Source: Acidobacteriota bacterium
GTDB lineage: Bacteria; Acidobacteriota; UBA4820
Reading direction: 5' to 3'
NCBI GenBank assembly: GCA_029559035.1
Contig: JAKQCT010000061.1
Location: 94,162 to 158,161, forward strand
DNA: 64,000 bases
The first letter of the stretch is position 1. Every line of letters starts with the position of its first letter. The notes beneath the pieces were generated by a model. That model was not told where the DNA came from and searched no databases. It was given only the letters and a program-made list of their open reading frames with translations. The translations under genes and the position numbers were made by a program. Positions 1,453 to 45,793 of this stretch are shown here, piece after piece.

Positions 1453-2019
1453 CTACTCTGCCGGTTCGAAGTACGCCTTCGGGTGTTTGCAGAGAGGACA
1501 TGTTTCGGGGGCTTCCGACCCTTCGTGGATGTGGCCGCAGTTCCTGCATCTCCACCTTATCGGATTGTCCCTCTTGAAATATGTTCCCTTCTCCACCATT
1601 TCCTGGAGGACCTTGTAGCGTTTCTCATGCTCGACCTCGACCTTGCCGATGGCCCTGAATGTGAAGGCGACCGCCTTGAACCCCTCCTGTTCCGCGACCT
1701 CCGCGAACTCCGGGTACATCTTCGTGTGCTCGAAGTTCTCCCCTGACGCGGATTCCTTCAGGTTCTCCGCCGTGGTCCCTATCACGCCCGCGGGGAACGC
1801 CGCGGTGATCTCCACTTCGCCGCCCTCGAGCAGTTTGAAGAGGAGCTTCGCGTGCTCCAGTTCGTTGGCGGCCGTTTCCGAGAATATGGCTGCTATCTGC
1901 TCGTAACCCTCTTTCTTCGCCTTGCTCGCGAAGAAGGTGTACCTGTTCCTGGCCTGGGATTCCCCGGCGAAGGCGCAGAGGATGTTCTTTTCGGTCTTCG
2001 TTCCCTTGATGCCTGCCAT
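1453..2019 (-). CDS. rbr: rubrerythrin
   Basis: N-terminal ferritin-like di-iron domain with ExxH pairs (ENILCAFAGESQARNRY; ANELEHAKLL), plus a C-terminal rubredoxin-like CxxC...CxxC (CRNCGH...CPLCKH). AGGAGA RBS. Confidence 0.9.
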   Translation of the reverse strand: MAGIKGTKTEKNILCAFAGESQARNRYTFFASKAKKEGYEQIAAIFSETAANELEHAKLLFKLLEGGEVEITAAFPAGVIGTTAENLKESASGENFEHTKMYPEFAEVAEQEGFKAVAFTFRAIGKVEVEHEKRYKVLQEMVEKGTYFKRDNPIRWRCRNCGHIHEGSEAPETCPLCKHPKAYFEPAE

Positions 2020-2049
2020 TCTTATTCTCCTTTCGTCTTAAAAGTCCGT

Positions 2050-3027
2050 TCACATATCCATAACATAGGCAAAAACAAGCGGCGCCACGATCGTGGCGTC
2101 CGACTCTATGATGAACTTCGGAGTGTCGATCCCGAGCTTGCCCCAGGTGATCTTCTCGTTGGGCACCGCTCCGGAATACGAACCGTAGCTCGTCGTAGAA
2201 TCGGAGATCTGGCAGAAGTAGCCCCACAGGGGGACATTCTTCATCCTGAGGTCCTGGTGAAGCATCGGCACCACGCAGATCGGGAAATCCCCCGAGATGC
2301 CTCCCCCGATCTGGAAGAATCCGATCGAATGCTTCTTCGATGTCTTCATGTACCACTCGGCGAGTATCATCATGTATTCCATGCCGCTTCTCATAGTCAG
2401 CGGGTTCCTGATGTCCCCGTTCATGCAGTGGGCGGCGTACATGTTGCCGAGCGTGGCGTCCTCGGCTCCGGGGACGAAGATCGGGAGGTCCCTCTTCGCG
2501 GCCTCGAGCAGCCAGGAGTGTTTCGGGTCTATCTGGTAATATTTTTCGAGCTTCCCTGAGAGAAGTATCCTGAAGAGGAACTGGTGCGGGAAGCACCTTT
2601 CGCCCTTCCTGTCCGCGGCCATCCATTCCGCAAGGACAACCTTCTCGATCCTCCTCATCGCCTCCTCTTCGGGTATGCAGGTGTCGGTGACGCGGTTCAT
2701 GTGCCTGTCCAGCAGCTTCTTTTCGTCCTTCGGCGTCAGGTCGCGGTAGTTCGGTATCCTCGCGTAGTGGTCGTGGGCAACAAGGTTGAAGACGTCCTCC
2801 TCCAGGTTGGCCCCCGTGGTGCAGATCGCGTTGACCTTGCCCTTCCTTATCATCTCGGCGAGAGATATGCCGAGTTCCGCCGTGCTCATCGCCCCTCCCA
2901 GGGTAACGAGCATGTGGCCGCCCTTCTTCATGTGTTCCCCGTAAGCTTTCGCGGCGTCGACGAGCGCCGCCGCGTTGAAGTGCCTGAAGTTCATGTCGAT
3001 GAACTTTCTGATCTCGCCCTTTGCCAT
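2050..3027 (-). CDS. deoxyhypusine synthase-like protein (DHS / homospermidine synthase-like)
   Basis: Full-length DHS-family sequence (MAKGEIRKFIDMN...GGAMSTAELG...GANLEED...GGGISGDFPICV) at a typical length of 325 aa. Confidence 0.8.
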   Translation of the reverse strand: MAKGEIRKFIDMNFRHFNAAALVDAAKAYGEHMKKGGHMLVTLGGAMSTAELGISLAEMIRKGKVNAICTTGANLEEDVFNLVAHDHYARIPNYRDLTPKDEKKLLDRHMNRVTDTCIPEEEAMRRIEKVVLAEWMAADRKGERCFPHQFLFRILLSGKLEKYYQIDPKHSWLLEAAKRDLPIFVPGAEDATLGNMYAAHCMNGDIRNPLTMRSGMEYMMILAEWYMKTSKKHSIGFFQIGGGISGDFPICVVPMLHQDLRMKNVPLWGYFCQISDSTTSYGSYSGAVPNEKITWGKLGIDTPKFIIESDATIVAPLVFAYVMDM

Positions 3028-5844: not shown

Positions 5845-6638
5845 CCCTCCTCCTGGTGTTCTCCGCCCTGCTGGGGCTCGCCTGCGGGTCTTTCGCGAAC
5901 GTCCTCATATTCCGCCTTCCGAGGGACCTCTCAATAGTGAGGCCGCCGTCGCACTGCCCTTCCTGCGACAAAGAGATAAAATGGTACCGGAACATTCCGG
6001 TCCTTTCATTCGTGATCCTCGGGGGCAGATGCGCCGACTGCAAGGCCAGGATCTCTCCCCGCTATCCGCTCGTGGAGCTGCTCGTAGGGGTCCTGTTCTG
6101 GTTCGCCGCCTACAATTTCGCCCCCGCGTTCCCCCCCGACTGGAGGACTGTCCTGACGCTCGTTTCCTCGTGGATCTTTCTCCTGTTCACCACGGCCTTG
6201 ATATTCATCGACCTCGAACATTACATCCTTCCCGACAAGCTCACGCTGCCAGGGATAGTCATAGGGCTCGGCTCCAGTTTCTTCCTGCCCTGGACCAGTC
6301 CGCTGGAATCCATAGCGGGCGCCGCCGCCGGGGCTCTCATCCCGTCGGCGCTCATAGGCCTTTACGCGCTCAGGAAAATCGAGGCCATGGGATGGGGCGA
6401 CGTTAAGATGCTTGCCATGATCGGGGCCTTCCTCGGCTGGCAGGGGGTCATACTCACGCTCCTTATAGGCGCCGTACTCGGGACGGTGATCGGAGGGCTC
6501 TATATCTTGACCAGGAAAAAGGACAAGAGGACTCAGCTCCCGTTCGGAACCTTTCTCGGGATGGCGTCCTTTGTATCGATCTTCTGGGGGGAGAGCTTCT
6601 GGGAGTGGTACATGGGATTCTCGGGAGTCTCTCCTTGA
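5838..6638 (+). CDS. pilD: type IV prepilin peptidase (A24 family)
   Basis: N-terminal LGLACGSFANVLIFRLP, zinc-binding CPSCDKEI...CADCKARI tetracysteine, catalytic Asp region and GWGDVKM motif; 8 TM helices. The ATG overlaps the upstream stop (ATGGTGA). Confidence 0.85.
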   Translation: MVTLLLVFSALLGLACGSFANVLIFRLPRDLSIVRPPSHCPSCDKEIKWYRNIPVLSFVILGGRCADCKARISPRYPLVELLVGVLFWFAAYNFAPAFPPDWRTVLTLVSSWIFLLFTTALIFIDLEHYILPDKLTLPGIVIGLGSSFFLPWTSPLESIAGAAAGALIPSALIGLYALRKIEAMGWGDVKMLAMIGAFLGWQGVILTLLIGAVLGTVIGGLYILTRKKDKRTQLPFGTFLGMASFVSIFWGESFWEWYMGFSGVSP

Positions 6639-8320
6639 GGGGCAGGAGGATATTCTACCTTCAGGTGGCCTTCTTCCTGTTCGCTTTCTGCATAGGAATC
6701 CTGATCCTGATGAAACTGGTCTCGGACCTGAAGGACAGCTCCGCCGACCTTTCCCGGCAGATTAACGCGCGCAGCACCGCCATACTGGAGAAGTTCAAGC
6801 TGACGCACTTCCGGAAGCCCGACCCGGGAGACCCTCAGCTTTTCAGCCCGAGGGAGAAAGAGAGCGGAGATTATCACATCTCCTCGATCGGGTCCTATTT
6901 CGGCAGCAAAGCTCATTGGGTGCTGCCCAAGGATGCGTCGGTCCCTCTTTTTTCAGAACCGATGAAGGGCTTTTCGGATGTCATGGTCCTTTCCAGCTCG
7001 AGGCGGATGTTCCTCTCACGGATCGACGACGGCCGCACCCTCGCGATAGTGTTCGAGACTCCGAGATACAGGTCGCAGTGGCGCCAGACCATCACGATCT
7101 CGACCCTTCTGGTCCTCTTCGTGATCGCCGGGATGATACTGTTCTCATTCACCGTGAGGAGGTTCGTTCCCGAGGACCCTGACAGCCAACCCGCGAAACG
7201 CGACATCGGGCCGATGGATGCGGTGGTCATGATGAAGAAAACCGTCTCCGAGCTGAAGGAAAAGAACCGCGAGCTTGAAGAGAAACTCGGGGCGGAAAAG
7301 ACCAAGGCCAAGGGGGCCGCTTCGGTCCTGGAGAGCCTGACTTCCGGGCTTGACGCGGGATTCCTCCGGTTCGACCATTCGGGGAAACTCCAGGGACTGA
7401 ACCAGAACGCGAACCGTCTTCTGGGGCTGTCGGAGCTCATGACCATCGGGGACAGCCACGAGAAGATATTCAGGGGAAGGCCCGCCCTCAAGGAACTTGT
7501 GGACGATGCGATCGAACAGAAAGCGATACTTACTGCCGAGGCGGTCGAAGGATTCCAGGGGAAGCTTCTCCTCGTCCTGACCATACCGCTCCTCGACGAC
7601 CTTAACCATTTCCGGGGCGTCCTCCTTATAATCCACGACAGGAGCCGCTACTACGCGATGGAGAACGCCATAAGGGAAAAAGAAGCCCTGGCGAGGCTCG
7701 GCGAAGTTGCCGCGGGAGTGGCTCACGAGATAAGGAACGGCCTCAACGTCCTCTCCGGGGAACTGAGGCTCCTAAAGCAGGAGACCGGCGGCGGCCACGG
7801 GACGAGGACCGGCAGGATAGAGAACGAGATCGGCCAGATGGAAAGGGTCGTCAGGGACCTGCTTTACTACTCCAAGCCGCTTGCCCTGGAGAAGGAACCG
7901 ATCGGCCTGAGGGCTTTCGCGGGGGAGATCTTGAGATCGGCGGCCGCCCAATTCCCGGGAACAGCTTTCACCTCCGAAACGGAAGACGCGGACTTCAGCG
8001 GAGACCAGGATTCCCTCTTCAGGGCGGTTTCCAACGTGGTCTCCAACGCGGCGGAGGCGGCGGGAGAAGGCGGAGAAGTGTTCATAAGGGCCGCCGCGGC
8101 GGAAGACCGGGTGACCATCGGGGTCGAGGACAGCGGAGCCGGGGTTTCCGACGAAGCGGTCGCGGACCTCTTCTCGCTTTTCGCCTCTCACCGGAAGGGG
8201 GGCACGGGCCTCGGCCTCCCGATCTCCAGGAAGATCGCCAGGGAACACGGGGGCGAACTTTCCCTGGCGAAATGTGCTAAACTTGGAGGGGCGTGTTTTG
8301 AATTTAAATTACCCAGGTAG
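6605..8320 (+). CDS. sensor histidine kinase (2 TM helices, periplasmic sensor domain, PAS, HisKA, HATPase_c)
   Basis: Two TM helices flank a ~150 aa periplasmic segment. A coiled-coil linker follows, then a PAS-like region, the H-box HEIRNGLNVLSGEL, and N/G-boxes (NVVSNAAEA; GTGLGLPISRKIAREHGGEL). Confidence 0.8.
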   Translation: MVHGILGSLSLRGRRIFYLQVAFFLFAFCIGILILMKLVSDLKDSSADLSRQINARSTAILEKFKLTHFRKPDPGDPQLFSPREKESGDYHISSIGSYFGSKAHWVLPKDASVPLFSEPMKGFSDVMVLSSSRRMFLSRIDDGRTLAIVFETPRYRSQWRQTITISTLLVLFVIAGMILFSFTVRRFVPEDPDSQPAKRDIGPMDAVVMMKKTVSELKEKNRELEEKLGAEKTKAKGAASVLESLTSGLDAGFLRFDHSGKLQGLNQNANRLLGLSELMTIGDSHEKIFRGRPALKELVDDAIEQKAILTAEAVEGFQGKLLLVLTIPLLDDLNHFRGVLLIIHDRSRYYAMENAIREKEALARLGEVAAGVAHEIRNGLNVLSGELRLLKQETGGGHGTRTGRIENEIGQMERVVRDLLYYSKPLALEKEPIGLRAFAGEILRSAAAQFPGTAFTSETEDADFSGDQDSLFRAVSNVVSNAAEAAGEGGEVFIRAAAAEDRVTIGVEDSGAGVSDEAVADLFSLFASHRKGGTGLGLPISRKIAREHGGELSLAKCAKLGGACFEFKLPR

Positions 8321-8329
8321 GAGGCATAG

Positions 8330-9343
8330 ATGAAAAGAACGGTTTTTTTCATCCTCATTGCGGCGTTCGGGCTCTCCGTGCTCGCCCAGGAGATGTGGCA
8401 CTCGGGGACTATCGATTCGGGCCTTGCCAAGGCGAAGAAAGAGGACAAGGTCCTGTTACTCAAGTTCTACTCGGACACCTGACACTGGTGCAAAATACTG
8501 GACCGTGATGTCCTAACGCCTGAGAACACGAAACTTTTCACGAAGCTCTTCGTCATGATGAAGATCGACACGAGAAAGGAAGACGGCAAAGCTCTCCGCG
8601 AGAAATACGCCATCAGGGGAGTTCCGACCGTGGTGCTCCTGGACCGGGCCGGAAACGAGATAGACAGGATCGTCGGCTACGAAAAGAGGGACGCCTGGGT
8701 CAAGGAGATTCTCGGCTACGCTTTCAACGTGGGCACGCTCGCAGATCTTAAGGCGCAGGCCGACGAGAAGAAAAGCGGCGAGCTTTTCTTCAAGGTCGCC
8801 ATGAAATATTACGACCGCGGAGCTTACGCCGATTCCTCGGCATATATCGGCAGGGCCAAGTCCGATCAGGCGAACTCCGAAGAGCTAAAAGGCTCGATCG
8901 CCCTGCTCGAAGGTGAATGCCTCCTGCAGACGGAACCCGATAAGGGAAAGAAACTTCTCCGCGACATCATGGCGGGCTCCGACAAGGAGAAGGCCGATGC
9001 CGCGTTCGAGGACCTTGCGGGTTATTACAGGAAAAAGAAGGACCACGACGGGACCGTCTCGATCTTCAAGGAGATGCTCCTGAAGAAGGGCGACGACAAG
9101 GACTTCCTGAACAGCTACGCGTGGACCCTCGCCGAGATCGGCAGGGAACTGGAATCCGCGGCCGAAGCGGCCCGGAAGGCCGTGGAACTGAGCAAGGAGG
9201 ACCCGCAGATCCTGGACACGCTCGCCGAGGTATACTTCAAGATGGGGAAAAAGCAGCTCGCCGTGGAGACCATTGAGAAGGCCATCGCCAAGGAGCCTGA
9301 AGATGAGTATTACAAAGAACAGAGAGCAAAGTTCCTTGAATGA
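8330..9343 (+). CDS. periplasmic thioredoxin-fold (Thioredoxin_7/TlpA-like) plus TPR protein with in-frame TGA (8480-8482) at the CxxC position: probable selenocysteine (U-H-W-C) selenoprotein
   Basis: AGGAGG RBS, then ATG 8330, then signal peptide MKRTVFFILIAAFGLSVLAQE, then ...KVLLLKFYSDT-TGA-HWCKILDRDVL...KYAIRGVPTVVLLDRAGNEI (thioredoxin cis-Pro loop). The same frame continues into track ORF 8555..9343 (TPR-like C-terminal half). There is no other stop between 8483 and 9343. Confidence 0.55.
8500..8513 (+). other. candidate minimal bSECIS hairpin 17 nt downstream of the putative Sec-UGA
   Basis: GGAC-CGTGAT-GTCC (4-bp stem, 6-nt loop containing GU), within the coding sequence and immediately 3' of TGA 8480-8482. 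Folding and covariation were not checked. Confidence 0.2.
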
Positions 9344-9368
9344 AGGGGCCCCTCCGGCCCCGAGGGAG

Positions 9369-10529
9369 ATGTCGAAATTCGAAGAGGTCGAGCTGATACG
9401 CCTCCTGTCCGCTTCCAGGAACAGCTTCGACAAGCTGGAGCGTAAGCTCGGGAAGTACAGGGAGATCTACGGCGACGCCCTCTACACGAAACTGCTTTTC
9501 CTCATATCCCACCTGGATTTCAAGCCTGCCGTGGCGAAAAAGCATTACGAGGCCATCAGGGAGCACCACCGAAACTGCGAAGAGAAGATGCAGAGGCCGG
9601 TGGACATCCGCGTCGCTATGGCGGACTATTTCGTTTCCAACAAGAAAAAGATCAAGAACCCGATGGTCCTGGAGATCCACCTCTTCAGGCAGGCCCAGCA
9701 GGCCGGCTTCATAGACATGCTCACCTCGCTTTACAACTACTCGTTCCTGAGGGCCGCCCTTCCCCACGAGATGGCGCACTCCAAGCGCTACGCCGACCCC
9801 ATGAGCATAGTTTTCTTCGACCTCGACGATTTCAAGAAGGTCAACGACAAGTACGGCCACGAGATCGGCAACTCCTGCCTGAAGTACGTCGCGCAGGTGA
9901 TCCAGGCCTCCATCAGGGAAATGGACATGGCTTTCCGCTACGGCGGGGAGGAGTTCCTCTGCATCCTTCCAAAGACCGACAAGTTCGGCGCGCTGGCCGT
10001 CGCTGAAAGAATAAGGAAGACGCTCGAAAAAAGCGACCTCTCCTTCCTCGGGCAGAAGGACCTCAAAATATCGTTGAGCGGCGGAGTCTCGTCCTTCCCC
10101 GTCGACGGAGAACAGGGCGACTCACTCGTGAAGTTCGCCGACGAGGCGATGTACCGTGCCAAGAACAAGGGAAAGAACCGGATCGAGCTGTTCTCGCTTG
10201 AGAAGAGGGCTTACGAAAGGTTCGACGACAAGTTCAAGAGCGTGATCACGATAAACGGCAGCGATTACCCCGTAATGGGAAAGAACATCAGCATCGGGGG
10301 CTTTTATTTCGAGGGGAAACACGGAATGCAGTGCCCCGCGAAGGTCCCCTTCCGGATGGAGTTGGAACACCCCCTCTACAAGACCGCCGTCATAAAGGGC
10401 GACGGGAAGGTGACCCGGGTCGAGCCCCAGCCGGGCGGAAAATGCGGGATAGCGGTGACCTTCATGGGAATGAGGGCCGCCGACAGGGACATGCTGAGAA
10501 AGTACATATCGTTCCTTACTGCCAAATGA
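9369..10529 (+). CDS. diguanylate cyclase (GGDEF) with C-terminal PilZ domain
   Basis: GGDEF core RYGGEEFLCILP with upstream DLDDFKKVNDKYGH. C-terminal PilZ motifs RAYER (RxxxR) and NISIGG (D/NxSxxG). Start moved to the ATG at 9369 to avoid overlap with the upstream gene. Confidence 0.8.
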   Translation: MSKFEEVELIRLLSASRNSFDKLERKLGKYREIYGDALYTKLLFLISHLDFKPAVAKKHYEAIREHHRNCEEKMQRPVDIRVAMADYFVSNKKKIKNPMVLEIHLFRQAQQAGFIDMLTSLYNYSFLRAALPHEMAHSKRYADPMSIVFFDLDDFKKVNDKYGHEIGNSCLKYVAQVIQASIREMDMAFRYGGEEFLCILPKTDKFGALAVAERIRKTLEKSDLSFLGQKDLKISLSGGVSSFPVDGEQGDSLVKFADEAMYRAKNKGKNRIELFSLEKRAYERFDDKFKSVITINGSDYPVMGKNISIGGFYFEGKHGMQCPAKVPFRMELEHPLYKTAVIKGDGKVTRVEPQPGGKCGIAVTFMGMRAADRDMLRKYISFLTAK

Positions 10530-13512: not shown

Positions 13513-16500
13513 TTATTCGCATACCCCCGAACTGTTGACCATCCTTCCGTTTCCCGCAGGGCCTTCGCCGGAGCCGTTGGTGCCGCTGACGATGTACCAA
13601 TACAACCTGCCTATTTCAGAAGACGGATCGTCGGCGGATAGGTCTATCGATGTTGATGATCCCTCGTATCTCAGGCAGGAATCCGGATCCGCTGTCAGCA
13701 GGTTTGGAAGGCCGCTCTGGATTCCCCGGTAAAGCTTGTAGCCTGTCGCGCCTGTGAGGGAAGGCCAGCTCTGGCTCGTCCCGCTCCATGTCTGCCCGTT
13801 CTCGTACGTGTCGCCCGGCGCGCATTCCGTCAGGACCGCGTCGCATTCGCCCGAACCCACATAATCGCAGTTCATGGTCGTCGGCGGAGTATAGTTGATC
13901 CTGAGGATGGGGCGGTTCCCGCTAGTTCCGTTCTCCTTGGACGCGAAGATGTAGGTCAACGCGGTCTTGTCGTTCTCGACGCTTCCCTTCACTATCAGGC
14001 CGTAATTGTCACTCGTCCCGTCGACCCAATCCTGGACAAGGGAAGCTATGTTCCATATCTTCCAGCCCGTCGATGTTCCGCCCGTGATCGAAGCGTTCGC
14101 CGTGGAAGTGAATGACGGTTGGTTGGTCCAGGTGACCCCGGCCTCGGTCCAGCTCCCTGTGATCTTGTGGACGTTGAGCGTGAGGCCCGTCGTCGGAGCT
14201 GAGCTCGCGTAAAGCTCCAGCGTCGCCGAATTGATCACCGAATTTTCCGGTATCGCGGAAAGGTCGAACATGACAAGCGTCCTCTGCGCCTGGGACAATC
14301 TCGACTGCACAGACATCGTCGCCCCTGAACCGTAGTTCGTCCCGGCTGACCCCTGGTTCACATATGAATCCGCCGTCGACGGCTGAAGAACGAGGTCCGT
14401 CGGCACTCCCGCAGCTATCTGCCCCACCTGTACTAAGAACAGGTTCGTCTCGTCCGCTCCCGCAGGGGTGAGTTCCGTGCATACCTTGCTTCCAAGATTG
14501 AAGTTGATGTTGCCTCCGCAGGGTGTGAAGTCGTCGTCTATGACGAAGCTGTAAGCATATGTTCCAGTCCCGCCGGCGGCGATCGTCCCGAAAGAACCTG
14601 TGGGGTTGCATACAGTTATTCCGTTACCCGAAAAGACTGCAGTAACGTTCGACGCGGGAGTATTGCCCGAGTTAGTAACGGTAACAGGAACCGACCATTT
14701 CTCGCCCCTCTCAAAGTAACTGTCTCCGTCGCCAGTCACTTGCGAGAAAGTGCCGTGGGATTGGTAAATGATGTTCGGAATGCAGGGGGTTATAGTCACA
14801 GAGTGAGAATCGGAAGTACCAGAACAGCTATTGGAGTCTGTCACGGAGACAGTGTAACTGCCTGAAACGGTTGCCTCATATGCGCTTGAAGTTGCGCCCG
14901 AGATCTGAGAACCGTCGAGATTCCATTGGTAGGAGGAGTAGGAGGCGGGAATTGAGAGAGAAACGGAGGAAGAGGGGCAGGTGTTTGAGGTTGAACCGGA
15001 GATGGAGGGTTGAATAAAGGTGCCGGGATAGTAAATACCGCCTAAATGACCATTCCATGAGGATTGACCACCCCAAATAATCATGCTGTCCTCTGTCCAT
15101 ACAGCAGAATGATCATATCTTCCAACAGGAACAGGTGCCAATGTCGATGTTACAACCCATTTATCTTCCAATGGATAATATTTGCCCCCTGAATTTAGAT
15201 TATATCCATATGAACCATCGGATCGAAAGCCACCCCACACAATCATTTCGCTGCCTGTCCATACCACGCTATGCCAATATCTCTCTTCTGGACAGTTTGT
15301 TCCTGTCGATGTCGCGTTCCACGCATCCAAGTGGGGGTTATACCTGCCGCCTGTATTTAAGATGAAAGAAGAAGATCCATCATAAAATAGTCCTCCCCAA
15401 ATAATCATTTCAGAACCTGTCCAAACAGCAGTGTGATCCTTTCTCATGGATGGGAGATTAACACCAGTTGAAGTTGGTTGCCAGGAATCGTTCAAAGGAT
15501 TATACTTGCCTCCATCATTGTAATACTCGTAATTATTGTTACCTCCCCATACTATCATCTCGGTTCCAGACCAAACAGATGTATGATAACTTCGCACCGA
15601 TGGACAATTGACACCAATTGATGTGGAAAGCCAAGAGTTCGTTGATGGATTATATCTGCCGCCATCATTTTTGGGGGTTGGAAGATAGCCGTCCCCACCC
15701 CATATCACCATCTCCGATCCTGTCCAAACAGCAGTGTGACGGAATCTGGAGGCAGGCACGTTAATATCAAGAGAAGTTGAACTCCAAGTATCTGAAATTG
15801 GATTATATTTGCCGCCACAATTAAGATATGCAGAGCCGATATTATGTCCACCCCAGACAATCATTTCTGAGCCAGTCCAGACTGCTGTATGAAGGTGCCT
15901 TGGCATGGGACAATTAGCTCCAGTTGATGTTGAAATCCAGCTATCAGTTGAAGTGTTATACTTCCCTCCAGTATAGAGAGGATAGTAATTATCGGTGTAT
16001 GTAAGTCCACCCCAGACTATCATCTCTGTTCCTGTCCATACTGCGGTATGATCAGTTCGCTTTTCAGGATTATTAATTCTTGATGTTGGGACCCAATCAT
16101 CACTTGAGGGGTTGTAGCGCCCGCCTGTGTTAAGACTTTTACCATATCTATCATGGCCACCCCAAATAATCAACTCAATTCCTGTCCATATTCCTGAAAA
16201 CGACACTCTTGCCTGCGGAACATTTGCACTTTCAGAAGTGGCATTCCATGTGTCATTCGTCGGAATATATATTCCACCTGTATTAGCATAATCATCCTCA
16301 TCTATACCCCCCCATACAATCATCTCTGAACCAGTCCATATTGCAACATGACCCAATCTAGCAGAAGGAGTATTTGAATTCACTGACGTAATCACCCAAG
16401 TGTTGGAAACAGGATTATATCGGCCTCCAGAATTTTGATATCCATCTATATAAGCGTTATCTCCACCCCATATTATCATTTCAGACCCTGTCCATACTGC

Positions 16501-18075
16501 TGAGTGTCGACATCTGACGGATGGAACATTTGCTCCGGTTGAAGTCGATATCCAACCGTTTGTCATTGGATCGTATACCCCCCCTGTGTTGAAATATATG
16601 TATATGCTGCCATCATGATATACTCCTCCCCAGATTATCATCTTGGATCCAGTCCATACTGCTGAGTGCCACATTCTTGCAGATGGGGTTGTTGCCTCTA
16701 CTGAAGTTCCTATCCATTGACCAGTAGCTGGGTCGTATCTTCCTCCATCATTATAATAATATCTATTCGTACCACTACTGCTGTACCCTCCCCAAATTAT
16801 CATTTCACTTCCAGTCCATATAGCACTAGGATGGCTTCTCGCCGAAAGAGGGTTGGAATCTTCTGATATTAATAACCATGAATCTGATGATGGATTGTAT
16901 CGTCCTCCGTTTTTATAGTAGGTTGCGCCATTAAGCCCTCCCCAGACTATCATTTCAAGACCGGTCCATACCGCGGCACTCGATCCTCTTGGCGTAGGGA
17001 CATTAGAACTTGCAGAGATTCCCGTCCAATTATCGGTAGATGGATTATAAAGACCTCCAGTACTCAATGCCGTTAATTCATGATCGTGAAGAATAAAGCC
17101 ACCCCATATGATCATTTCAGTTCCAGTCCAAACCGCACAGTGACATATCCTCTCACAAGGCATATCATCCAAAATCCCGTTGTCCCAGCCCTCAACACAT
17201 CCACTTTCCATTACCGGCGGCAAGTACATTGAAACATTTCCTTCGGTCTTTGGCAGATTTTTTATCACCTCTTGGCCTTTTAACCATTCTTCTGAAGAGA
17301 CTTTCTTGAAGGTCATTCCTTCAACGATTATCTCTCCTTCATTCTTTAAAGCGGTGTGAAGTATCACAAAACAATCATTCTTCTCTATCACCCCGGATAT
17401 CTTCCCTTCTTCGGGTATCTCTTGGAACATCTTTTCGAATTCTTTTTCCGACAACCCTATAGAATGATCTTCAGGATCAAGTCTATCCATTTCCGGTTCG
17501 GAGTTTTTCATCTCCAGCCTGTAAGTCATCTTGCTGTACTTGCCTTCGGGATATGAGCAGAAGTTCTCTGTGGTTAATTTCTTCCGTATTTCTTCTGCTT
17601 TATCTCTCGTCTCCTTGTGGAACCTCTCATCATTCGCGTACCAGTTCCTGACGAGTCTGTCGGCGAGGACGGGCCTGGCGAGGCACTCTGCTATCAGGTA
17701 TGGGTCGTTATTGAGGGCTTCGAAAAGTTCGTTCAGCGTGGCAGGATCCTTGGTCCCTTTCGCCATCCTGTCCATCTCGGCCTGGAGCTGATCGCCGGTT
17801 ATGGGGCGGTACCAGTACTTTTCAAGGGCGGCGGATTTCTTGAGATAGTCCGTGACCTTGTTCTCTATCGTTTCTTTCGAGACCATCGTTTCGAAGGCGG
17901 GCTTCGGGGTCTTGTTCTCCTTCGGCCAGATGCGGTGGTTGTAATATACCTTCTCTATCGCCTCCTGCGCCTTCACCCTCTGCTCGATTGTCAGAGGCTC
18001 GCGCCCGAGAGCCGAAAAAGATGAAAGCATCAGAATTCCGGAAAACACAAAGAGAATAAGATCCCCTCTCTTCAT
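13513..18075 (-). CDS. giant secreted Kelch-repeat beta-propeller protein (~16 blades) with Ig-like region, DNRLRE-like domain and C-terminal FN3-like Cys-bracketed module
   Basis: Signal peptide MKRGDLILFVFSGILMLSSFSALG. About 16 repeats of the form RxxHTAVWTGSEMIVWGG...GGRYNPxTDxW. The C-terminal third has Ig-like segments, then SVQSRLSQAQRTLVMFDLSAIP...ATLELYA...GSWTEAGVTWTNQP (DNRLRE-like, ~13908-14388), then a terminal ~120 aa module shared with the FG-GAP protein. Confidence 0.8.
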   Translation of the reverse strand: MKRGDLILFVFSGILMLSSFSALGREPLTIEQRVKAQEAIEKVYYNHRIWPKENKTPKPAFETMVSKETIENKVTDYLKKSAALEKYWYRPITGDQLQAEMDRMAKGTKDPATLNELFEALNNDPYLIAECLARPVLADRLVRNWYANDERFHKETRDKAEEIRKKLTTENFCSYPEGKYSKMTYRLEMKNSEPEMDRLDPEDHSIGLSEKEFEKMFQEIPEEGKISGVIEKNDCFVILHTALKNEGEIIVEGMTFKKVSSEEWLKGQEVIKNLPKTEGNVSMYLPPVMESGCVEGWDNGILDDMPCERICHCAVWTGTEMIIWGGFILHDHELTALSTGGLYNPSTDNWTGISASSNVPTPRGSSAAVWTGLEMIVWGGLNGATYYKNGGRYNPSSDSWLLISEDSNPLSARSHPSAIWTGSEMIIWGGYSSSGTNRYYYNDGGRYDPATGQWIGTSVEATTPSARMWHSAVWTGSKMIIWGGVYHDGSIYIYFNTGGVYDPMTNGWISTSTGANVPSVRCRHSAVWTGSEMIIWGGDNAYIDGYQNSGGRYNPVSNTWVITSVNSNTPSARLGHVAIWTGSEMIVWGGIDEDDYANTGGIYIPTNDTWNATSESANVPQARVSFSGIWTGIELIIWGGHDRYGKSLNTGGRYNPSSDDWVPTSRINNPEKRTDHTAVWTGTEMIVWGGLTYTDNYYPLYTGGKYNTSTDSWISTSTGANCPMPRHLHTAVWTGSEMIVWGGHNIGSAYLNCGGKYNPISDTWSSTSLDINVPASRFRHTAVWTGSEMVIWGGDGYLPTPKNDGGRYNPSTNSWLSTSIGVNCPSVRSYHTSVWSGTEMIVWGGNNNYEYYNDGGKYNPLNDSWQPTSTGVNLPSMRKDHTAVWTGSEMIIWGGLFYDGSSSFILNTGGRYNPHLDAWNATSTGTNCPEERYWHSVVWTGSEMIVWGGFRSDGSYGYNLNSGGKYYPLEDKWVVTSTLAPVPVGRYDHSAVWTEDSMIIWGGQSSWNGHLGGIYYPGTFIQPSISGSTSNTCPSSSVSLSIPASYSSYQWNLDGSQISGATSSAYEATVSGSYTVSVTDSNSCSGTSDSHSVTITPCIPNIIYQSHGTFSQVTGDGDSYFERGEKWSVPVTVTNSGNTPASNVTAVFSGNGITVCNPTGSFGTIAAGGTGTYAYSFVIDDDFTPCGGNINFNLGSKVCTELTPAGADETNLFLVQVGQIAAGVPTDLVLQPSTADSYVNQGSAGTNYGSGATMSVQSRLSQAQRTLVMFDLSAIPENSVINSATLELYASSAPTTGLTLNVHKITGSWTEAGVTWTNQPSFTSTANASITGGTSTGWKIWNIASLVQDWVDGTSDNYGLIVKGSVENDKTALTYIFASKENGTSGNRPILRINYTPPTTMNCDYVGSGECDAVLTECAPGDTYENGQTWSGTSQSWPSLTGATGYKLYRGIQSGLPNLLTADPDSCLRYEGSSTSIDLSADDPSSEIGRLYWYIVSGTNGSGEGPAGNGRMVNSSGVCE

Positions 18076-44131: not shown

Positions 44132-45793
44132 ATGTTTTGTTTTCAGTGCCAGGAAACGGCGAAGAACACGGGATGCACGGTAAAAGGGGTCTGCGGCAAA
44201 CAGGAAAGCACGGCCGACCTGCAGGACCTTCTAATATTCGTTCTCAAGGGGATCGCGGTCTACCAGGACAAGCTCAGGGAACTGGACGAACCGTGCCGCT
44301 GCAACCATGAGTTCATCATCAAGAGCCTCTTCGCGACGATCACGAACGCCAATTTCGACGACGCCCGCTTCACGACGCTCATAACCGAGGCGCTCGAGCG
44401 GCGCGAGAAGTCCAGAGCGAAGTTCCTCGAGGTGTGGAAGAAGAAGAACGGAAGCGATTTCAACGGAACGCTCCACGCGTCCGCCACCTGGACGGGAGCT
44501 CCTTCGACCTTCGCGGCTCAGGCGAAGCTGGCCGGCATACTCGCCACAGGCAACGAGGACGTAAGGTCTCTGAGGGAACTGCTGGTGATCGGACTCAAGG
44601 GCATCGCGGCCTACGCCGAACACGCCTGGGTGCTCGGGCACAAGAAGGACGAGATAGGCGATTTCATGATAGAAGCTCTCGCATCGACCACAAAGGACCT
44701 TCCGGTGGACCAGATGGTAGGCCTCGTAATGAAAGCCGGACAAACTGCCGTGACGACGATGGCCCTTTTGGACGAGGCGAACACCAGGGCATACGGGAAC
44801 CCCGAGATCACCGAAGTGAACATCGGCGTCGGCAAAAACCCCGGCATCCTGATCTCCGGACACGACCTCAAGGACATGGAAGAACTTCTCAAGCAGACAG
44901 AAGGGACGGGAGTTGACGTCTACACCCACAGCGAAATGCTGCCCGCCCATTACTATCCCGCCTTCAAGAAATACAAGCACTTCGTCGGCAACTACGGCAA
45001 CTCCTGGTGGAAACAGAACGAAGAGTTCGAATCCTTCAACGGCCCGATCCTGCTCACCACGAACTGCCTCGTCCCGCTGAGGAAGGAGAACACCTACCTC
45101 GACAGGCTATTCACGACGGGAGTTGCCGGCTACCAAGGAGCGACGCATATTGTCGACAGGCCCGAAGGAGGAAGAAAAGACTTCTCCGTCATCATCGAGA
45201 AGGCGAAGAAGTGCCCGCCCCCGAAGGAGATCGAGACCGGGAAGATCATCGGCGGCTTCGCCCACAACCAGGTGATGGCGGTGGCCGACAAGGTCGTCGA
45301 GGCGGTAAAGTCGGGCGCGATCAAACGCTTCGTGGTCATGGCCGGCTGCGACGGAAGGATGAAGAACCGCAGCTACTTCACCGAGGTCGCCGAAGCTCTG
45401 CCGAAGGACACGATCATCCTCACCGCGGGCTGCGCGAAGTACCGCTATAACAAGCTTCCGCTGGGCGACATCGGCGGCATCCCGCGAGTCCTCGACGCCG
45501 GGCAGTGCAACGACAGCTACTCCCTCGCCGTGATAGCCCTCAAGCTCAAGGAAGTGTTCGGCCTTGACGACATCAACAAGCTTCCATTATCCTTTGATAT
45601 CGCCTGGTACGAGCAGAAGGCCGTCGCCGTGCTTCTCGCCCTGCTCTACCTGGGAGTGAAAGGGATACGCCTGGGGCCGACCCTTCCGGCGTTCCTTTCA
45701 CCCAACGTCGCGAAGGTGCTGGTCGAGAAGTTCGACATCAAGCCGATCGCTACCGTCCATGAGGACGTTGCCGCGATGATGGCTGGAAACTGA
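44132..45793 (+). CDS. hcp: hydroxylamine reductase / hybrid-cluster protein
   Basis: N-terminal Cys cluster [23 protein letters not shown], full-length 553 aa. Confidence 0.9.

Follow-up and report, generated by a model that had tools for sequence, protein, structure and literature searches.

The stretch of DNA analyzed here, called the window below, comprises 64,000 nucleotides (nt) of contig JAKQCT010000061.1 from an Acidobacteriota bacterium of the UBA4820 lineage. Positions 8330–9343 of its forward strand very probably constitute one gene for an exported selenoprotein, in which the TGA at 8480–8482 is a genuine selenocysteine (Sec, or U) codon. The comparisons directly support a single gene, the alignment of its U with cysteine (Cys, or C) in homologues, a conserved TGA, a covarying RNA hairpin linked to that TGA, export signals, and the fusion of a thioredoxin (Trx) fold to tetratricopeptide repeats (TPR). 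The landmarks of the reading frame are the following.

8330–9343, forward strand: full proposed selenoprotein gene, 337 codons including Sec51, then the terminal TGA stop at 9341–9343 (338 in all).
8319–8324, forward strand: Shine–Dalgarno sequence AGGAGG, 5 nt ahead of the ATG at 8330 and overlapping the upstream TAG stop (8318–8320).
8480–8482, forward strand: TGA, very probable selenocysteine codon U51, which opens the U-H-W-C redox motif and faces Cys in the full-length orthologues.
8489–8491, forward strand: TGC, resolving cysteine C54 of UxxC, present in every locus carrying the motif.
8555–8557, forward strand: internal ATG (Met76), false start of the public 262-aa "tetratricopeptide repeat protein," without a comparable purine-rich motif.
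8624–8626, forward strand: cis-Pro codon, P99 of G-V-P-T, the second Trx active-site hallmark; P99 is invariant in alignments A1 and A3.

The frame is open apart from this single in-frame TGA, and its upstream neighbor is a HisKA histidine kinase open reading frame (ORF) at 6605–8320. Read through, the translation starts with MKRTVFFILIAAFGLSVLAQE, passes KVLLLKFYSDT-(TGA)-HWCKILDRDVL, and reaches IRGVPTVVLLDRAGNEI (given onward as IRGVPTVVLLDRAGNEIDRIVGY) before the helical TPR-like half. A preliminary description, made from the sequence alone, had noted an ORF with a signal peptide and an AGGAGG that ends at the TGA while the frame stays open onward, and each of these is found where it was placed. 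Standard ORF calling divides the frame into an ORF of 50 amino acids (aa) (8330–8482) and a 262-aa ORF (8555–9343), both in the same frame. Eleven contigs, assembled independently from different samples, carry an identical 262-aa product preceded by the 50-aa ORF, and the public callers split all 11. The public protein P0001 is identical to the 262-aa fragment (100% identity over 78% of the read-through protein; contig up to 301 kb) and is named "tetratricopeptide repeat protein" by NCBI, in a metagenome-assembled genome (MAG) of Acidobacteriota. The same public split is present in all close relatives, with an ORF of 49–72 aa followed by a shortened ORF, and split and synteny are seen also in relatives at 62–85% identity.

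Since gene callers yield exactly two ORFs, and the NCBI product name describes a TPR protein, one could envisage two real genes, the first for a secreted 50-aa peptide that stops at the TGA and the second for a TPR protein of its own, initiated at ATG 8555. We consider this very improbable. Such a division cuts the thioredoxin fold inside its active-site motif (the Pfam domain Thioredoxin_7 covers residues 23–105), and the stretch of 72 nt that follows the TGA up to ATG 8555 keeps the frame and encodes a conserved xxCKxLDxxV segment. There is no Shine–Dalgarno sequence before 8555, with AGGAGG present before 8330; the "second gene" would be without the signal peptide found throughout the family; and the Cys orthologues form one continuous protein.

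These orthologues come from a search with the read-through protein of a collection of 5.8 billion proteins; the DNA was then taken for 80 species-representative genomes, 80 metagenome contigs, and several of the closest "truncated" relatives. The matches comprise a long series of proteins of 262–292 aa, covering ~78% of the query, and a smaller full-length set of 340–360 aa. The active site of the full-length homologues is KFYSDTCSWCKKLD, or CGPC in distant ones, with the first Cys falling on the TGA of the window. Five Cys orthologues (P0007, P0008, P0011, P0013, and P0014; ~340 aa, 49–53% identical) are single proteins and colinear with the window protein through the TPR half. In four of them (P0007, P0008, P0011, and P0013), KFYSDTCSWC stands opposite KFYSDT-TGA-HWC. 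The preliminary description had proposed this alignment as a check, and its outcome is favorable: the first Cys aligns to the TGA and each orthologue runs on through the TPR half as a single protein.

Among 158 related loci, spread over at least six phyla, the first CxxC codon is TGA in 108 (56 + 52) and TGC or TGT in 50 (23 + 27); TAA or TAG occurs in none of the 158. The coding sequence is conserved on both sides of the TGA, and the TGA loci reach proteins down to ~25% identity. According to the record titles, the TGA form is present in Acidobacteriota MAGs including Thermoanaerobaculia, in Aminicenantes UBA4820, Neomarinimicrobiota/Marinimicrobia, Fidelibacterota, KSB1, and others; the Cys form is present in Thermoanaerobaculum aquaticum, Latescibacterota, Calditrichia, Krumholzibacteriia, Bacteroidota, Ignavibacteriales, Planctomycetota, and some Marinimicrobia. 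The closed genome CP070656.1 (L035, Fidelibacterota) has the TGA form, and OZ245730.1 (L030, Calditrichia) the Cys form. On a neighbor-joining tree of 128 unique full-length sequences (87 with U and 41 with C), parsimony gives at least 11 changes between U and C, and the sister of the window's clade is the Cys form of Thermoanaerobaculum (L001). This pattern of codons and alignments is that of a true selenoprotein family; it is compatible with neither a pseudogene nor an assembly error nor two independent genes.

A pseudogene or a sequencing or assembly error would mean that a Cys codon, TGC or TGT, had been mutated to, or misread as, TGA. The codons are one base apart, the window is part of a MAG, and no Sec machinery is found in the window. 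The same product and the same 50-aa ORF were, however, assembled independently on the 11 contigs mentioned above, the TGA recurs at the same codon in 108 loci and is never replaced by TAA or TAG, both halves are open and conserved at the protein level, and an RNA hairpin co-occurs specifically with TGA. Because the TGA is conserved, this explanation is effectively refuted and must be judged extremely improbable.

Two of the loci, L026 (JALUUH010000018.1, labeled Gammaproteobacteria) and L031 (JAADGP010000043.1, FCB group), have in common the active-site segment IVLVNYYTDW-U-TWCKRLDADTFSD, and their DNA 3′ of the TGA is nearly identical. L026 may owe its Gammaproteobacteria label to a binning error.

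The RNA following the UGA contains a candidate selenocysteine insertion sequence (SECIS).

8500–8513, forward strand: candidate core of a bacterial SECIS; stem 8500–8503 (GGAC) with 8510–8513 (GUCC), loop 8504–8509 (CGUGAU).
8498–8518, forward strand: 21-nt core CUGGACCGUGAUGUCCUAACG, with synonymous sites almost invariant in the window's clade.

This hairpin, GGAC-CGTGAT-GTCC in the DNA, begins 17 nt after the TGA, as first described, and the G-U of its loop is at +26/+27 counted from the U of UGA. In a codon-anchored comparison with the same numbering, register A (nt 16–19 with 25–28; CGGC-UGGAU-GCCG) occurs mostly in Marinimicrobia and Fidelibacterota, and register B/C (nt 21–24 with 31–34) contains AGACC-AGUU-GGUCU or, in the window's clade, GGAC-CGUGAA-GUCC. 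One of these registers holds a perfect 4-bp helix in 86 of the 93 unique TGA forms versus 5 of the 48 unique Cys forms, a contrast that is partly non-independent, since TGA and Cys forms are phylogenetically clustered. The median local minimum free energy (MFE) of nt 13–38 is −6.6 kcal/mol in TGA forms versus −1.5 kcal/mol in Cys forms (Mann–Whitney p = 8e-15); the MFE over 60 nt does not separate the two (p = 0.74). The pairs vary in composition: at pair 17–27, 30 GC, 15 GU, 4 UA, 1 AU, and 1 CG; at pair 21–34, 22 GC, 12 AU, and 7 GU; at pair 22–33, 31 GC and 8 AU. In L023, L044, and L053, compensation occurs through codon choice, with Arg CGG changed to Leu CUG and, opposite, Ala GCC to GCA. 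The hairpins of Marinimicrobia often extend to 10–14 bp.

For 23 sequences of register B/C, the only helix predicted by RNAalifold is 8500–8503/8510–8513. All cells are paired in these 23 sequences (100%, no broken pairs; controls with slid partners, 26%–55%). Double changes from G-C to A-U occur at two of the four pairs (in five and three sequences), giving eight cells changed on both sides, a number reached by none of 500 shuffles. Synonymous sites were compared within the window's clade, 12 genes with proteins down to ~36% identical. There, the six codons with an invariant residue between +6 and +12 have a mean pairwise codon identity of 0.85, whereas 52 other columns with an invariant residue give 0.40 (p = 4e-4). 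All 12 genes use CGT for Arg+8, and other invariant Arg columns have three or four codons. According to the preliminary description, the lack of a conserved stem-loop 3′ of the TGA in related genomes would speak against selenocysteine; in the related genomes compared here, the stem-loop is conserved.

An alternative hairpin that appears in some single-sequence folds, CGUGA-AGUCC-UUACG, was rejected: it is broken in the outgroups L080 and L093, which keep the GGAC/GUCC-type pairing. Nor is a conserved lower SECIS stem claimed for the window's clade, where the registers vary between members. The Cys forms with a perfect hairpin in the SECIS register are L077, L049, L030, L106, and L110; L077 (TGT at 10037) keeps CGGCUGGAUGCCG. 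Such forms may have passed from Sec to Cys recently, leaving a fossil SECIS; alternatively, the hairpin in them may be in part a by-product of the K-R-L-D-A-D codons.

In the SECIS of E. coli fdhF, G23 and U24 contact SelB, one codon closer to the UGA than the +26/+27 of the window, and bSECISearch uses a window of 16–37 nt. The fdhF loop itself, GGUC, is present in the members L093, L134, and L150. The position of the hairpin and its G-U-containing loop fit the rules for bacterial SECIS elements. As in fdhF, the hairpin is inside the ORF, directly 3′ of the UGA, with a G-U in the apical loop; it differs in that the window's clade has a conserved stem of 4–5 bp and neither a conserved bulged U nor a lower helix. 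The central claim of the preliminary description, that the TGA encodes selenocysteine in a gene split by standard calling, is strongly supported by the Cys alignment, the codon counts (108 TGA, 50 Cys, no TAA or TAG), and the hairpin linked to TGA.

The protein itself is organized as follows.

8330–8386, forward strand: predicted signal peptide MKRTVFFILIAAFGLSVLA, cleavage predicted before QE.
8396–8707, forward strand: thioredoxin-fold domain, residues 23–126, of DsbD-gamma/Thioredoxin_7 type.
8732–9340, forward strand: C-terminal TPR-like helical solenoid, residues ~135–337, with the conserved motifs FLNSYAW and ILDTLAEVY.

The N-terminus is a typical signal peptide of the general secretory (Sec) type. 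Export signals are present throughout the family: by a simple heuristic, 131 of the 136 loci with a complete 5′ end have one (83 signal peptidase I-like and 48 with a lipobox), and the remaining five resemble lipoproteins by eye. On these predicted signals, the Trx-TPR family is an exported one. Lipoboxes (for example, LFIFAC, IIFSC, or FLGAC) are found in marine members (L016–L027 and other Marinimicrobia/Fidelibacterota). The members from Marinimicrobia and Fidelibacterota are probably lipoproteins; those from Acidobacteriota, the window included, have ordinary signal peptides.

With Cys placed at the TGA of the translation, three Pfam models span the TGA: Thioredoxin_7 (PF13899; residues 23–105, 52.7 bits for a cut-off of 27, 4.7e-14), Thioredoxin_2 (PF13098; 40.8 bits, cut-off 27), and Thioredoxin (PF00085; 34.5 bits, cut-off 23.5). 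Partial NCBIfam matches of the Trx domain, to DsbD (1e-11), DsbH (4e-10), and the C-terminal domain of TsoB, are all far under the family cut-offs, and no family-specific NCBIfam model claims the window protein. The closest sequence match of the Trx domain in the PDB is 2kuc, a "putative disulphide isomerase" of Bacteroides (2e-10). The active-site context had at first been assigned as Thioredoxin_7/TlpA; its Thioredoxin_7 part stands, and the domain is of DsbD-gamma/DsbH/Thioredoxin_7 type rather than TlpA. Pfam TPR_19, TPR_14, and TPR_2 match residues ~208–334. Initially considered an unusual partner for a Sec-containing Trx domain, the TPR half turns out to be usual here, as every homologue, Sec or Cys, has it. 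Its invariant residues, N261, A264, and W265 in FLNSYAW and D296 and T297 in ILDTLAE, suggest a conserved binding surface.

The AlphaFold2 model used for the fold (pLDDT 93.3, pTM 0.85) is that of P0007, a 52%-identical Cys orthologue, and not of the window protein. It contains a Trx fold at ~27–130, then eleven helices between 136 and 341, and the CxxC motif opens the helix 51–59 after the strand 40–46. With Foldseek, its best whole-chain match is E. coli YbbN/CnoX (3QOU; E = 3.3e-7, 307 aligned columns), with 17% identity, a root-mean-square deviation (rmsd) of 22 Å, and a template modeling (TM) score of 0.25–0.30. Taken by itself, the Trx domain can be superposed at 2.5–3 Å on 2kuc, DsbH, cDsbD, and thioredoxins, and the C-terminal part matches TPR solenoids.

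TGA is the terminator of 35 of the 52 ORFs picked in the window. UGA is therefore an ordinary stop, the code is not reassigned, and the TGA at 8480 is a local exception; a screen on the G+C content of third codon positions (GC3) gave no further credible read-through TGA in the window. The UGA could still be read without Sec, by a reassigned code (Gly or Trp), a suppressor tRNA, or a near-cognate Cys or Trp tRNA, the hairpin acting as a mere stimulator. Stem-loops after stop codons can generally promote read-through, and the window is without Sec machinery. We consider read-through of this kind improbable, given the ordinary use of TGA in the other ORFs. Cys, the standard partner of Sec, is the sole residue at this position in the homologues; the position is that of the catalytic nucleophile of the redox motif, and neither Trp nor Gly would be active there; the hairpin is placed, and its G-U loop built, as bacterial SECIS rules would have it; and repeated switching between U and C is the signature of selenoprotein families.

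Several observations weigh against a selenoprotein gene, besides the phylogenetic clustering of the two forms and the use of a Cys orthologue for the structural model, already mentioned. The genes selA, selB, and selD and a tRNA-Sec are absent from the 64-kb window and from ~2 Mb of flanks at related loci (172 loci), as expected because the Sec machinery is normally unlinked. In particular, no tRNA at all is found in the window and no tRNA-Sec in 60 related loci. NCBIfam identifies no SelA, SelB, or SelD among the 20 largest ORFs of the window (it does identify Lon, Hcp, GlyQ/GlyS, FtsK, an alcohol dehydrogenase, AgcS, a TolC-like protein, glycosyltransferases, and others), and tblastn with E. 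coli queries gives no match to SelD or SelB in the window or related loci. At the loci compared, there is no conserved operon partner (DsbD/CcdA or Msr) that would indicate a specific redox pathway. In the window's clade, the conserved stem is only 4 bp long and no lower stem is consistently kept. Rfam contains no SECIS family matching the whole window at the gathering threshold, or 8440–8600 at E ≤ 10; its sole matches are chance ones, to snoR24 and a long noncoding RNA. Finally, the 66 nt after the UGA fold, alone, no better than shuffled sequences (z = −1.16), and the MFE structure of 8480–8545 (−11.9 kcal/mol) pairs the UGA itself and is without the conserved hairpin. It is the comparison with relatives alone that makes the hairpin significant. 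Folding the region and searching it for a SECIS had been suggested at the outset; the stem-loop is conserved, covaries, and is largely absent from Cys forms, and neither the single-sequence fold nor Rfam reveals it.

If 8330–9343 is a selenoprotein gene, the UGA at 8480–8482 would be decoded as selenocysteine by SelB and Sec-tRNA(Sec). From the sequence comparisons, we infer that Sec insertion in the host organism is SelB-dependent and directed by the hairpin 8500–8513, a short SECIS within the coding sequence that would recruit SelB, with its loop G-U ~26 nt past the UGA. After removal of the signal peptide, the mature protein would be periplasmic. In the DsbD-gamma-like Trx domain, Sec51 would attack as the nucleophile and C54 would resolve, with cis-Pro99 opposite. 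The protein would then be a thiol/selenol–disulfide oxidoreductase, cycling between selenolate/thiol and an intramolecular Sec51–Cys54 selenenylsulfide, and the TPR domain may bind client proteins or peptides, or a redox partner. It could do in the envelope what the Trx-TPR chaperedoxin CnoX does in the cytoplasm, or act as a soluble reductase of DsbD-gamma type. Sec would provide faster exchange and resistance to irreversible over-oxidation.

Selenoproteins with a UxxC motif in a Trx fold, exported ones included, are the commonest and largest prokaryotic selenoprotein class (PMC2398784; PMC13188914), so that the interest first attached to a Sec-containing thioredoxin was overstated. The families of the Global Ocean Sampling (GOS) survey include Trx-like 1–3, DsbA-like, and a "thiol:disulfide interchange protein" (cd02953) (PMC2398784), and uncultured bacteria, marine and anaerobic, are rich in UxxC Trx-like families (PMC2398784; PMC13188914). 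In the catalogued Trx-like selenoproteins, as in the family of the window, Sec replaces the N-terminal Cys of CxxC, Cys homologues coexist, and the SECIS is in the coding sequence right after the UGA. As in GOS Trx-like 3 (212 Sec, 183 Cys), the family of the window has more Sec than Cys forms (108 vs. 50), and the window protein shares with these families matches to PF13098 and DsbD-gamma-type models. The catalogued families, compared by description only, are described as stand-alone domains, none with a C-terminal TPR solenoid. The family may overlap with GOS Trx-like 2 or 3; GOS reads of ~800 nt could have hidden the TPR half.

The NCBIfam family NF041199, a Trx7/PDZ (seleno)protein, similarly combines a Thioredoxin_7-type domain with a protein-interaction domain and has Sec and Cys forms. 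Its weak local match to residues 27–80 (E = 1.9e-4) reaches 20.5 bits for a cut-off of 300, and the window protein is not a member; the partner is PDZ there and TPR here. The Sec motif of NF041199 is listed as CxxU (PMC13188914), versus UxxC in the window protein.

The closest Trx domains by sequence and fold are DsbD gamma, DsbH, and 2kuc, which are of periplasmic reductase type. They have Cys instead of Sec and no TPR domain, and in DsbD, the gamma domain is anchored to a membrane domain for electron transfer, which the window protein lacks. In the matches to DsbD (NF001419; 44 bits vs. 330) and TsoB (NF045694; 50 vs. 805), only the C-terminal Trx domain aligns, without the membrane or rhodanese parts.

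CnoX/YbbN (E. coli 3QOU and Salmonella 3QDN) resembles the window family in having an N-terminal Trx followed by C-terminal TPR in one chain, and some distant Cys homologues (P0043) carry the Joint Genome Institute (JGI) name "thioredoxin-like negative regulator of GroEL." But CnoX is cytoplasmic, and members of the window family have signal peptides or lipoboxes. The domain orientation also differs, as the rmsd and TM score given above indicate, and a phmmer search of the PDB did not return 3QOU at E ≤ 0.01. E. coli CnoX has an SxxC motif, versus UxxC/CxxC in the window family, and is not known to have reductase activity. The window protein is not a member of the CnoX family; location, sequence similarity, and domain geometry all fail.

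We found in the literature no paper on a Trx-TPR selenoprotein with UxxC, or on Sec in Aminicenantes. The Trx7-TPR domain fusion is uncatalogued, with neither an NCBIfam model nor a paper found; the protein class and the kind of selenoprotein are known. Going further, the family might be an uncatalogued exported Sec-dependent "chaperedoxin," distinct from all listed Trx-like subfamilies, that repairs or protects envelope proteins and uses a minimal SECIS of 4–5 bp. It would couple a Sec Trx domain to a client-binding TPR solenoid in anaerobic or marine uncultured phyla (Aminicenantes, Thermoanaerobaculia, Marinimicrobia, Fidelibacterota, and KSB1). We put this forward tentatively and regard it as rather unlikely in its entirety.

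The gene order is conserved only in the Aminicenantes-like clade, with an ATP-binding cassette (ABC) transporter, a TPR protein, a prepilin peptidase, the HisKA kinase, the selenoprotein gene, a GGDEF/PilZ gene, ComEC, and endonuclease V. In other lineages, the neighborhoods are unrelated and give no functional hint. Upstream in the window (1453–3027, reverse strand), ORFs of rubrerythrin size (188 aa) and deoxyhypusine synthase-like (325 aa) match annotated syntenic genes (L168:285–1864); the block from rubrerythrin to endonuclease V is therefore conserved in the Aminicenantes-like clade. The public starts of the downstream GGDEF/PilZ gene (9273–10529, forward strand) differ between L161 and L162–L164, giving 386 or 408 aa, and the longer version extends ~40 nt into the 3′ end of the selenoprotein gene (70 nt with the TTG at 9273). 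In L171:1–5203 (ENA ERZ23499116 scaffold_48), the family gene is just 3′ of a cluster with a large Fer4 protein, NrfD, ActD, and cytochrome c; the cluster resembles Alternative Complex III, and the arrangement is not kept in other lineages.

Elsewhere in the window, 44132–45793 (forward strand) encodes a hydroxylamine reductase/hybrid-cluster protein, Hcp (NF003658, 834 bits), with no demonstrated link to the selenoprotein gene. Rubrerythrin and Hcp had been cited as anaerobe markers in favor of Sec; Hcp is confirmed, and the argument from the two is circumstantial. An ORF of 1520 aa at 13513–18075 (reverse strand) has a GC3 of 0.51, versus 0.7–0.85 in most real genes of the window; it could be foreign, repetitive, or of unusual composition.

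The understanding of Sec decoding is unchanged by this family, which should not surprise a selenoprotein specialist. Its consequences are first for annotation. In this family, spread widely over several uncultured phyla, upward of 100 loci (at least six phyla) and dozens of protein clusters are misrecorded as an orphan ORF of 49–72 aa and a shortened "tetratricopeptide repeat protein," and a Trx7/TPR (seleno)protein family model in the style of NF041199 would repair this. One selenoprotein would be added to the selenoproteomes of Aminicenantes, Thermoanaerobaculia, Marinimicrobia, and Fidelibacterota, and the Trx-TPR "chaperedoxin" architecture would be extended to the cell envelope. A very short hairpin embedded in codons, with three sequence types in one family, could serve as a test set for the minimal bacterial SECIS. 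The natural Sec/Cys pairs, arising from at least 11 switches, allow one to ask when selenium pays in an exported oxidoreductase.

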